A DNA stretch of 64,000 nt from Rickettsiales bacterium (GTDB lineage Bacteria > Pseudomonadota > Alphaproteobacteria > Rickettsiales > UBA6187): assembly GCA_040507985.1 (NCBI GenBank), contig JBEVNR010000016.1, positions 3,509 to 67,508 on the forward strand. The letters run 5' to 3'. The notes beneath the pieces are model-generated. The model had not been told where the DNA came from and did not search any database. It worked only from the letters and a program-made list of their open reading frames with translations. This document shows positions 27,908 to 28,211 of this stretch, piece after piece; position 1 is the first letter of the stretch; each line of letters begins with the position of its first letter. Both the position numbers and the translations under genes were made by a program.

Positions 27908-28211
27908 GTTCACTATTCCTGCAAAAACGAATGAAATTTTAGCTTCGCCGGCCGGTGGCTCGCTAAAAAAATCCCTAAAAATCGTCTCGTGTAGCTACGC
28001 CGGCCTATGGCTCAAAAAGTGCGCACAGCCTAACCTCATTGCAGGAACGTATAACTTTGAGTTCAATAGGACTTACGCAGTGCGTAGATTTTTGAGCGAT
28101 TTATAGGTTAAAATCGGATAAAAAGCGCAGCGTACTCAACGTACGTGAGCATTTTTAGACGATTTTTACCGCAGAAAGCGCCAAAAAGATGCGTGCTGCG
28201 TAAGTCCTATT
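27908..28211. repeat. composite intergenic repeat region (largest copy of the modular repeat family)
   Basis: Contains the module cgctaaaaaaatccctaaaaatcgtctc...aaaaagtgcgcacagcc (also at 39914-39962, and inverted at 17296-17364). It also holds a 147-bp unit bounded by a perfect 16-bp inverted repeat: aataggacttacgcag (28065-28080) and ctgcgtaagtcctatt (28196-28211). That unit encloses the core gcgcagcgtactcaacgtacgtgagca (28125-28151). Confidence 0.8.

Follow-up and report, generated by a model that had tools for sequence, protein, structure and literature searches.

The 64,000-nt stretch of DNA analysed here (the window) belongs to a Rickettsiales-like MAG and contains two long hairpin elements, designated copy 1 and copy 2 (Table 1). 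Copy 1 lies in the spacer downstream of serS and is oriented like serS and like the ORF that follows at 28334. Copy 2 adjoins era (12132-13055), whose stop codon (12132-12134, minus strand) spans the element junction, so that the gene enters copy 2 by its last base only. At 147 and 144 nt both elements fall below the ~300 bp limit for MITEs, and they are non-coding: the only ORF of at least 50 aa that touches an element interior, 28145-28324 (59 aa, GTG start), lies partly in the 3′ arm of copy 1 and continues into the flank. The arms of the two copies are unrelated, and an asymmetric apex, GCGCAGCGTAC-N5-GTACGTGAGCA, is common to both.

An initial annotation of the window had described these repeats as one modular family of intergenic, MITE- or REP-like inverted repeats. 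Its main sequence items were all recovered in place, and the MITE interpretation was strengthened by the terminal inverted repeats and TAA duplication of copy 2, by an end-to-end match to Rhizobiales elements and by a filled/empty polymorphism in a family member. The single family was not sustained, as the window instead holds two unrelated backbones. According to the ORF map all copies are intergenic, as had been proposed, save for the overlap of the right end of copy 2 with the era stop codon.

Table 1. Hairpin elements, their apex modules and related repeats in the window
Feature	Position	Strand	Evidence
Copy 1, 147-nt hairpin element	28065..28211	+	Inverted repeat I1, fold, relatives in L129/L138
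Apex module of copy 1, GC-GCA-GCGTAC-TCAAC-GTACGT-GA-GC-A	28125..28151	+	Sequence, fold, pattern search
Copy 2, predicted 144-nt IS5-type MITE (GAGCCTGTTCACGATCTC ... GAGATCGTGAACAGGCTC)	11989..12132	+	Inverted repeat I25, fold z = -8.3, alignments
Apex module of copy 2, GCGCAGCGTAC-TAGAC-GTACGTGAGCA	12047..12073	+	Sequence, pattern search
Perfect 31-nt palindrome, two copy-1 termini only (AATAGGACTTACGCAGTGCGTAAGTCCTATT)	4667..4697	.	Fold z = -9.7
67-nt hairpin with copy-1-type termini (TTAGGACGGACGCG ... CGCGTAAGTCCTAA), without apex module	9566..9632	+	Fold z = -2.3
33-nt hairpin with degenerate copy-1-type termini (AATAGGACGTAAA ... TTTACTCCCTATT)	35115..35147	+	Fold z = -3.0
Solo terminus-like AATAAGACTTACGCAT, beginning at stop codon of ORF 1036-1560	1560..1575	+	Mismatch search
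Module 1, serS spacer	27942..28030	+	Repeats D16 and I2, fold z = -1.3
Shorter module-1 copy without GCTACGCCGGCCTATGGCTC segment, followed by TAG	39914..39962	+	Fold z = +0.07
Module-1 3′ end alone (AAAAAGTGCACACAGCC), directly upstream of copy 2	11967..11983	+	Sequence match
Degenerate module-1 3′ end (AAAAAGTGCATACAGAC, 2 mismatches), followed by TAA	25024..25040	-	Mismatch search
Chimeric unit, copy-1-type terminus and arm start (AATAGGACTGACGCGATACG-AGAGTTTT) joined to module-1 3′ part (GCTACGCCGGCCTATGGCTGAAAAAGTGTGCGCAGC)	17295..17364	-	Local alignment

The perfect 16-nt inverted repeats reported at the ends of copy 1 (28065-28080 and 28196-28211) were confirmed; they continue into arms of 44 nt at 80%, and imperfect inverted repeats reach out to 28051-28225. 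Folding, which had been recommended as a check, gave a single hairpin for copy 1 with a free energy of -75.5 kcal/mol on the + strand (z = -11.6), versus -60.2 kcal/mol on the - strand; copy 2 likewise folds well beyond shuffled sequence.

The core at 12047-12073 had been noticed previously as a stretch shared with copy 1, although it had been overlooked that this core is the apex of a second complete element. Copy 2 is bounded by 23-nt terminal inverted repeats at 96% and flanked by direct TAA repeats (11986-11988 and 12133-12135), and it aligns over its full length with elements of Phyllobacterium (Rhizobiales). The termini of the Rhizobiales elements (GAGCCyGTTTGGAAA...) share 21-25 identical nt with the ends of IS5-family insertion sequences that also have TAA flanks. 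The Phyllobacterium terminus TAAGAGCCCGTTTGGAAAGTC has its match at the ends of an insertion sequence from Ralstonia, TAA-GAGCCCGTTTGGAAATTC ... GAATTTTCAAACGGGCTC-TAA, which codes for a DDE_Tnp_1 plus DUF4096 transposase annotated as IS5 family, and the left end of an Acetobacter IS5-family element matches it as well. Target duplications in the Rhizobiales relatives are TCA, TAA and TTA. The combination that marks the IS5 family, a 3-bp T-N-A duplication with GAGCC... termini, is found in copy 2 and not in copy 1. Judged by its sequence, copy 2 is a MITE of the IS5 family, whose T-N-A-duplicating elements we take to be the ISfinder groups IS1031 and IS427. An IS630-type partner with a TA target, as suggested at first, does not fit copy 2; the TA guess may still apply to copy 1 only. 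The cognate transposase that was to be looked for did not appear: none of matching type was found in the window or in any fetched locus, and the Ralstonia IS5 transposase, used as a tblastn query against the window and every locus, matched the Acetobacter insertion sequence only.

Mobility of the family is documented in Agrobacterium vitis, where plasmid pAtS4e carries a family element of ~141 nt at an orthologous site that is empty in two other plasmids; VAT03-9 and VAR03-1 are the empty-site strains. The empty site reads ACGG-TCA-GATTTT and the filled site ACGG-TAA-(element)-TCA-GATTTT, that is, a T-N-A duplication (TAA and TCA) where the empty site has a single TCA. The neighbouring gene ends in a TGA stop, of which this TCA is the reverse complement, and insertion occurred exactly on that codon. 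Among the matches listed, 67 of 97 elements have the end of an opposite-strand ORF (120 aa or longer) at a distance of 40-65 nt from the core; on the other side this holds for 21 of 89. At a looser cut-off of at least 90 aa, 88 elements among the matches listed have an opposite-strand ORF, falling into 83 unrelated clusters. The ORFs that abut elements are mutually unrelated, several copies per genome lie beside unrelated genes, and all-against-all clustering of 2,760 ORFs from the at least 119 loci carrying the apex (see below) revealed no linked gene family. One copy sits within a 16S-23S spacer, in the transcribed orientation.

Copy 1 ends in AA(TA)GGACTTACGCAG ... CTGCGTAAGTCC(TA)TT and is assigned to a lineage-specific family with the termini TA-GGACTTACGCAG. 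Further copies exist beyond the window: arms nearly identical to those of copy 1 recur in L129, a relative whose SerS is 78% identical and which carries two copies, and in the metagenome contigs L138 and L139. The L129 assembly breaks off inside one such element. In every member of the family TA borders both sides of GGACTTACGC...GCGTAAGTCC (GGAC...GTCC), and the bases beyond TA differ between copies; the family probably targets TA. The target duplication of copy 1 itself is ambiguous (TA, TCA or TTCAA), and TA may instead belong to the terminal repeat. Synteny with relatives is not conserved downstream of serS, and no parent insertion sequence for copy 1 was found. In the window and in related metagenome contigs the family also occurs as hairpins of 31, 33 and 67 nt. 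Two of the degenerate arm-like copies listed earlier were recovered as such, at 1560-1575 with 2 mismatches and at 17349-17364 with 3; the one placed near 9625 is the right end of the 67-nt hairpin, the one near 35115 is the 33-nt hairpin, and the 31-nt palindrome had been missed.

The serS spacer also contains module 1, which consists of a direct repeat (GCTTCGCCGGCCGGTGGCT / GCTACGCCGGCCTATGGCT) followed by CGCTAAAAAAATCCCTAAAAATCGTCTC and a 3′ end, AAAAAGTGCGCACAGCC, then TA. Its previously listed relatives were borne out: positions 27966-27988 match 39918-39940 at 91%, and 27994-28029 are 92% complementary to 17296-17331. The sequence AAAAAGTGCRCACAGCC occurs exactly at 11967, 28014 and 39946 (chance expectation 0.03), with weaker copies at 25024-25040(-) and 17295-17311(-). 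Module 1 had been grouped with inverted-repeat elements, yet it folds no better than shuffled sequence (z = -1.3, -1.7 and +0.07); it is a genuine dispersed repeat and is itself no inverted repeat. Its link to the copy-1 family appears to run mostly through the chimeric unit (17295-17364): in local alignment with the copy-1 arm this unit reaches a score of 28, and 300 shuffles gave at most 22. The case for module 1 as a decayed copy-1 element comes down to this unit and a 12-nt exact match (TAAAAATCGTCT, p ~0.003 before multiple testing).

The core shared by the two elements differs at two loop positions only, as claimed. The pattern GCAGCGTAC-N5-GTACGTGAGC has 2 matches in the window, where 0.00 are expected. 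The original observation of two sharing sites holds for the window and reaches further, for the motif is conserved across phyla. The apex was found at at least 119 genome loci, where ~4 are expected by chance (1.2e12 searched positions / 4^19); these locus counts are not independent, because most of the loci belong to one alphaproteobacterial family. Among the matches listed, the taxa are Alpha-, Gamma- and Deltaproteobacteria, Bacteroidota, Spirochaetota, Bacillota, Campylobacterota and Acidobacteriota; A. vitis S4, Phyllobacterium brassicacearum STM196 and Sphingobium are carriers in culture. Nearly all of the 114 distinct foldable elements among these matches place the apex at the tip of a long hairpin: the enclosing span has a median of 187 nt in a 204-nt window and is below 100 nt in only 2 of the 114. 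The arms group into 23 clusters, and the terminal repeats vary with the taxon (among the matches listed).

The apex comprises a GC/GC clamp, an internal loop of 5′-NNA and 3′-GA, a 6-bp helix closed by a G.U pair, a free loop of 4-7 nt and an unpaired 3′ A. The loop varies over that range of lengths, and the helix contains one compensatory change of G-C to A-U. The two strands are not equivalent. Among the matches listed, the + strand folds better in 102 of 114 elements. Purine-purine mismatches in the arms number 275 against 53 pyrimidine-pyrimidine mismatches, an excess seen in 34 of 39 dissimilar representatives and reversed in 3. G.U exceeds A.C (110 vs 62), an excess that is modest when taken by cluster (11 clusters vs 5). 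Of all 5-mers, CGCAG shows the strongest strand asymmetry, with 31 occurrences and 6 of its complement.

Several identities for the apex were considered and rejected. It is not a part of the parent insertion sequence, being absent from both insertion sequences examined. A resemblance of GUACGUGAGC to 23S rRNA (helix 90 region) was dropped when the 23S sequence of locus L041 had no match within 1 mismatch. Readings as a K-turn, a loop E motif, a group II intron domain V or an attC site misfit in their registers or boxes on inspection. An apparent internal sigma-70 promoter in sphingomonad arms, TCGACA-N18-GAAAAT, has a last -10 base that covaries with the opposite arm (GAAAAT, GAAAAC or GAAAAG) and is therefore stem rather than promoter. 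No promoter was flagged on the + strand of copy 1, nor was a conserved one found across elements. Rfam 15 yielded no family over the window elements or 24 loci at gathering or relaxed E-value thresholds, and our search of the literature found no description of the apex.

Taken together, these data make it probable on balance that the elements are MITEs mobilised by DDE transposases, together with decayed pieces of such MITEs, and that they carry a conserved apex which acts single-stranded, probably as RNA. In this scheme copy 2 would have been inserted by a cut-and-paste reaction at a T-N-A target (TAA) overlapping the era stop codon, and both backbones would presumably depend for their movement on DDE transposases supplied in trans from other parts of the genome. 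The insertions that survive would mainly be those in spacers or those whose duplicated target restores the stop codon of a gene. The same asymmetric apical stem-loop is placed by both backbones at the centre of the palindrome, and it would act with the + strand (GCAGCGUAC...GUACGUGAGC) single-stranded, most likely as RNA, as a recognition hairpin for a widely conserved host factor. The apex is kept across phyla while arms and termini turn over, from which we infer a functional module; this conservation suggests that the apex serves some purpose by itself. An effect that depends on orientation would be expected of it and could account for the orientation bias of insertions relative to the abutting gene. 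Against this reading, transcription of the abutting gene usually runs towards the element in such a way that the mRNA would carry the reverse complement of the apex, and the favoured strand would need its own promoter. Strand-biased mutation, for example C-to-A on the + strand, could add to the purine-purine excess without any function.

A more ambitious form of this argument, which we regard as possible but rather doubtful, holds that the apex is a new cross-phylum structured module, made of hairpin RNA or else of single-stranded DNA, in which a G.U pair and unpaired purines are conserved, borne by several unrelated transposon backbones and kept for a universal host factor such as an RNase, an RNA chaperone or the replication/repair machinery. 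The apex would then amount to a mobile functional RNA element and not to junk flanked by two terminal repeats. MITEs are usually defined by their ends, with interiors held to be disposable, whereas here the interior is the conserved part, and the same 27-nt asymmetric tip occurs on different transposon backbones within one genome. If functional, the tip would represent an unannotated RNA or DNA motif in hundreds of genomes and would offer a handle on the host factor that small transposable hairpins exploit and on their orientation bias at gene ends. The elements also restore stop codons, lengthen 3′ UTRs by ~150-nt hairpins, break assemblies and are unannotated in RefSeq plasmids.

The elements might instead be purely selfish MITEs whose apex works at the DNA level only and has no RNA function, an account we consider unlikely though by no means far-fetched. 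The apex would nucleate a cruciform or hairpin, or bind a DNA-bending or hairpin-binding host protein, and so join the termini and aid transposition. Such a role is consistent with the strong mobility features, with an A/T-rich loop exactly at the palindrome centre and with the observation that, in the DNA sampled, elements which have these termini but lack the apex are rare and short. It has a parallel in the 155-bp Correia element of Neisseria, in which an IHF-binding motif is centrally placed, and would account for conservation in every lineage regardless of transcription. However, at least 20 invariant asymmetric bases are unnecessary for cruciform nucleation, and the variable loop length speaks against a double-stranded site with two fixed half-sites. 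Action on DNA alone also leaves the purine-purine excess in the arms and the gene-orientation bias unexplained, unless the hairpin of one strand only is involved. The asymmetry would, however, agree just as well with a + strand hairpin of single-stranded DNA as with RNA.

The strand asymmetry, conserved unpaired purines and G.U pair resemble a structured RNA, and the copy in the 16S-23S spacer is oriented for transcription, features that could also belong to an ordinary chromosomal family of small-RNA or cis-regulatory RNA genes, non-mobile, with the arms as stem and the terminal repeats and duplications incidental. We give this explanation very little credence: the empty-site alignment, with its filled/empty polymorphism and target duplication, already contradicts it, and it is at odds with termini identical to insertion-sequence ends, with several copies per genome beside unrelated genes and with the absence of an Rfam match even at relaxed thresholds.

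A REP/REPIN-like system mobilised by a RAYT (Y1 HUH transposase), or another single-stranded DNA hairpin system of the IS200/IS605 or attC-like type, would also be expected to display long, strand-asymmetric hairpins that have extrahelical bases and a conserved hairpin motif, and in non-alphaproteobacterial lineages the 3′ arm often has YYCAAC(G), which resembles the attC inverse core RYYYAAC. Such an origin is nevertheless highly improbable. Target duplications and terminal repeats identical to those of DDE insertion sequences indicate another mechanism; the conserved part is the apex, not the hairpin base as in attC nor the arms as in REPINs; the elements have no conserved GTAG-type tetranucleotide arm, no GTTRRRY partner in the 5′ arm and no integron cassette context; and no protein family is linked to them in at least 119 loci. 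That the elements are transcription terminators or stabilisers of mRNA 3′ ends, repetitive in appearance only, is most unlikely despite their position at gene ends, often between convergent genes, and a terminator-like match at the copy 1 apex and the ATTTTT after it, since the full hairpin has no subsequent U-tract in either orientation, the match stems from the A/T-rich arms of copy 1 only, and duplications, insertion-sequence termini and the conserved apex would all go unexplained.

The mobilised elements with a single-stranded apex that we favour can be set against several known systems. Copy 2 and the alphaproteobacterial family are like IS5-family MITEs in size (~140-180 bp), in lacking an ORF, in their GAGCCyGTTTGGAAA... 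termini, in the 3-bp TAA/TCA/TTA duplication and in insertion polymorphism. They differ in that the interior is no deletion junction of a parent insertion sequence and that the interior, rather than the termini, is conserved across phyla. The copy-1 family may share TA flanks with IS630/Tc1-mariner-type MITEs, but TTCAA and TCA repeats also flank copy 1. The CIR repeats of Caulobacter and Brucella, reportedly described by Chen and Shapiro in 2003, and the RIME/Bru-RS repeats of Rhizobiales are similar in being ~100-bp intergenic repeats, conserved among alphaproteobacteria, with predicted RNA stem-loops. CIRs consist of a pair of arms with a linker between them; they expose a GANTC site and lack terminal inverted repeats (Delihas 2008, PMC2229807). 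The window elements are set apart, by this description of CIRs only, as single hairpins with terminal repeats and no GANTC, and the alphaproteobacterial family may be identical to CIR, RIME or Bru-RS.

ERIC elements have orientation-dependent effects on mRNA. Together with Correia/NEMIS of Neisseria, the enterobacterial ERIC sequences are short, MITE-like palindromes that occur where genes end and have TA in their termini or targets; their RNAs adopt long stem-loop folds, NEMIS transcripts have been proposed as substrates of RNase III, and a 155-bp Correia species has a functional IHF motif (Delihas 2008, PMC2229807). The elements described here are alike in size, palindromic form and location, and have no sequence relationship to them. 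Correia/NEMIS and ERIC are each confined to one genus or family and are conserved in their termini, whereas here an asymmetric 27-nt apex spans unrelated backbones and phyla.

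In the window, whose G+C content is about 56%, the main items of the initial annotation were all found in the sequence and all above chance, and the ORF map confirmed that every copy is intergenic. The proposed 147-bp unit with perfect 16-nt inverted repeats in the serS spacer (copy 1) is present, with arms that reach 44 nt, and in comparisons with shuffled sequence it folds as a single hairpin (-75.5 kcal/mol, z = -11.6). Its 27-nt core is indeed shared with a site beside era, two loop bases being the sole difference, and the pattern GCAGCGTAC-N5-GTACGTGAGC is matched twice in the window versus 0.00 expected. 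More than the core is present at the second site, however, as it forms the apex of another complete hairpin (copy 2), with 23-nt terminal inverted repeats (I25) and a fold z of -8.3. The window holds two backbones and not one family, the arms of copy 2 being unrelated to those of copy 1.

Features of the window that bear on the hairpin elements
Feature	Coordinates	Strand	Remark
Solo terminus AATAAGACTTACGCAT	1558-1575 region (terminus 1560-1575)		Shares last base of TAA stop (1558-1560) of ORF 1036-1560
Perfect 31-nt palindrome	4667-4697		Two copy-1 termini alone; absent from the initial annotation
67-nt hairpin	9566-9632		Copy-1-type termini
Copy 2	11989-12132		Core at 12047-12073
TAA direct repeats bordering copy 2	11986-11988, 12133-12135
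era	12132-13055	-	MMR_HSR1 and KH_2 domains; stop codon spans right junction of copy 2
serS	26574-27860	+
Spacer downstream of serS	27861-28333
Copy 1	28065-28211		16-nt repeats at 28065-28080 and 28196-28211; core at 28125-28151
136-aa lipoprotein-like ORF	28334	+	Next likely gene after serS
rtcB	28771-29982	-	RNA ligase gene, ~560 bp from copy 1
33-nt hairpin	35115-35147

A scan with the same pattern, covering one genome per GTDB species, recovered at least 119 apex loci, compared with about 4 expected by chance (1.2e12 positions / 4^19). Among the matches listed, the apex is found in many Rhizobiales and Sphingomonadales, in other Alphaproteobacteria (Caulobacterales, Acetobacteraceae, Holosporales), in Gamma- and Deltaproteobacteria, and in Bacteroidota, Spirochaetia, Paenibacillus, a clostridial MAG, Campylobacterales and Bryobacteraceae. 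The motif is the tip of a long hairpin in nearly all of the 114 distinct foldable elements among these matches; the enclosing span, assessed over 204 nt, has a median of 187 nt and drops below 100 nt in only two. By their arms the listed matches form 23 clusters: a large one of 98 from Alphaproteobacteria, to which copy 2 belongs, and 22 small ones, of which copy 1 is one.

Read 5′ to 3′, the apex consensus comprises GC, paired with the GC on the 3′ side; NNA, usually GCA and also GGA, ACA or AAA; GCGUAC; an A/U-rich, unconserved loop of 4-7 nt; GUACGU; GA and then GC; and an A that is always unpaired, as a bulge or mismatch. The GC ahead of the core and the A behind it are conserved though the search pattern did not fix them. 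A G.U pair closes the helix, and one copy carries a compensatory G-C to A-U change (GCATAC...GTATGT). This covariation, together with the variable loop length, argues that the apex is recognised as a hairpin and not as a duplex with two half-sites. Within the copy-1 family the apex is not absolutely fixed, as a copy-1-type element on a metagenome contig (L139, 891-1034) has a diverged apex, GTAAGCGTAC-TTGTC-GTACGTGCGGA, in which the 6-bp helix is kept and both sides of the internal loop are changed. In a Natronospirillum MAG (L041, 4320-4346), one apex hairpin sits between the 16S and 23S rRNA genes and reads in the direction of the rRNA operon, so that it would belong to the pre-rRNA transcript.

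Phyllobacterium elements can be aligned with copy 2 over its whole length. With both flanks printed in register, the class of terminal inverted repeat was seen to vary with taxon: GAGCCyGTT... in Rhizobiales and copy 2, GGACCGATCGACATTCAG in sphingomonads, and further classes in delta and Bacteroidota lineages. T-N-A borders the repeats, with clear direct duplications of TCA, TAA or TTA in several copies. Positions 1-21 of the Rhizobiales terminus match the ends of an insertion sequence from Ralstonia, about 886 bp long (TAA-GAGCCCGTTTGGAAATTC ... GAATTTTCAAACGGGCTC-TAA), whose 274-aa product has DDE_Tnp_1 and DUF4096 domains and is annotated 'IS5 family transposase'; the same terminus agrees at 24/25 positions with an IS5-family element of Acetobacter at its left end. 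By these defining tests, copy 2 and its alphaproteobacterial relatives are IS5-family derivatives. Nine viral or proviral IMG/VR contigs (L120-L128) also carry the apex, and the element on one of them, L125, is the closest relative of copy 2 found in the inner arms.

Direct evidence of insertion is provided by Agrobacterium vitis. In pAtS4e and two other plasmids, an element of ~141 nt separates a gene of the isocitrate lyase family from an ABC permease gene, and it is absent from four related plasmids. The empty site, aligned from two of these, reads ACGG-TCA-GATTTT, and the filled site ACGG-TAA-(AAGTCTGTTCGAG...GGGACAGACTT)-TCA-GATTTT. Since the neighbouring gene's TGA stop reads TCA on the other strand, the element inserted on a stop codon that was kept by duplication. 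The same process accounts for a regularity in where genes end: among the matches listed, 67 of 97 elements have an opposite-strand ORF (at least 120 aa) that terminates 40-65 nt from the core, mostly at 56-59 nt. When the minimum length is relaxed to 90 aa, such ORFs occur at 88 elements and are mutually unrelated (83 clusters of 88).

Copy 1 is likewise a MITE, for which no parent insertion sequence was found. The short hairpins of the window share its termini, TA-GGACTTACGCAG, as do a relative whose SerS is 78% identical (L129) and metagenome contigs. GGAC...GTCC is bordered by TA in every copy-1-type unit, and the bases further outward are variable. This fits duplication of a TA target, as had been suggested, but TTCAA and TCA also flank copy 1. 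L129, the closest relative, holds two copy-1-type elements (11756-12302) in inverted orientation, separated by ~300 bp with a 51-aa ORF between them; the first has a truncated 3′ arm and the second is cut by the contig end. A UDG ORF runs into the first element, the 5′ arm of which supplies its last codons and stop. One metagenome contig (L138) has a complete element of 143 nt and another (L140) a solo terminus. The proximity of rtcB to copy 1 is probably a coincidence, as RtcB is not enriched near elements across the at least 119 loci.

The sites initially read as degenerate arms are real, but are better described as short hairpins and a solo terminus. The stop-codon overlap of the latter echoes the association seen with full elements. 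Mini-palindromes of back-to-back termini lacking an interior occur with both backbones (L114, 3720-3765, and the palindrome in the window) and may be excision or deletion products. Recurrence of module 1, the dispersed repeat in the serS spacer, was borne out by direct repeat D16 and inverted repeat I2; exact copies of its 3′ end, AAAAAGTGCRCACAGCC, lie at 11967, 28014 and 39946 (0.03 expected), with degenerate ones at 25024(-) and 17295(-). Module 1 folds no better than shuffled sequence. Its only solid link to the hairpin family is the unit at 17295-17364, in which a copy-1-type terminus and arm start are fused to the 3′ portion of module 1 (alignment score 28 versus a maximum of 22 among 300 shuffles). 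Because TA(A/G/T) always follows them, module-1 ends may be one-sided remnants of element ends. The D1, D2 and D7 families of 36-37-nt direct repeats, spaced 350-650 nt apart within ORFs (15666-16974 and 35346-36837), look like repeated protein domains of two gene clusters, with no relation to the hairpins.

Arm mismatches were scored in 39 dissimilar representatives by aligning each 5′ arm to the reverse complement of its own 3′ arm. On the GCAGCGTAC strand, purine-purine mismatches outnumber pyrimidine-pyrimidine ones by 275 to 53 (in excess in 34 representatives, the reverse in 3), bulged purines outnumber bulged pyrimidines (153 vs. 76), and G.U exceeds A.C (110 vs. 62). The per-cluster G.U excess is only 11 vs. 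5, because most elements belong to one family. The window copies share the purine excess (7 vs. 0 and 7 vs. 1). In an unbiased k-mer comparison CGCAG was the most asymmetric 5-mer (31 vs. 6 for its complement); most occurrences lie 0-20 nt to the 3′ side of the core, and the 5′ arm holds no CTGCG to pair with them. Among the matches listed, the GCAGCGTAC strand gives the better fold in 102 of 114 elements. A neutrally decaying palindrome of duplex DNA should show no such asymmetry, which therefore points either to one strand being under selection while single-stranded or to mutation that is strand-biased.

Orientation is biased as well. Among the matches listed, opposite-strand genes lie against the 3′ end of the element in 67/97 cases and against the 5′ end in 21/89, a threefold difference. 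In tandem gene contexts, 34 elements run against the direction of transcription and 17 run with it. Cut-and-paste transposition should be indifferent to orientation, both termini being equivalent, and the bias therefore suggests orientation-dependent selection. The bias also implies that read-through mRNAs usually bear the sequence complementary to the strand that the asymmetry tests favour. This tension could mean that the well-folding strand does harm when it lies within mRNAs, or on the template of the lagging strand, and is therefore tolerated mainly in the other orientation.

Taken together, these data support and sharpen the MITE interpretation, and we are confident that the elements spread in this way. 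As to mechanism, our preferred but tentative reading is that the apex might serve as a recognition hairpin in single-stranded form, probably as RNA. Rfam gave no match for the elements, the sole Rfam/ARAGORN match in the window being tRNA-Gln (UUG) at 46203-46277 (-), and they are without annotation in 31 alphaproteobacterial plasmids. CIR repeats as described in the literature (PMC2229807) are unlike them, but the alphaproteobacterial family may conceivably have an older name (RIME, Bru-RS or CIR). In general behaviour the elements resemble Correia and ERIC elements. Unlike in those and in IS5-family derivatives, it is an interior module, and not the termini, that is conserved across backbones and phyla.
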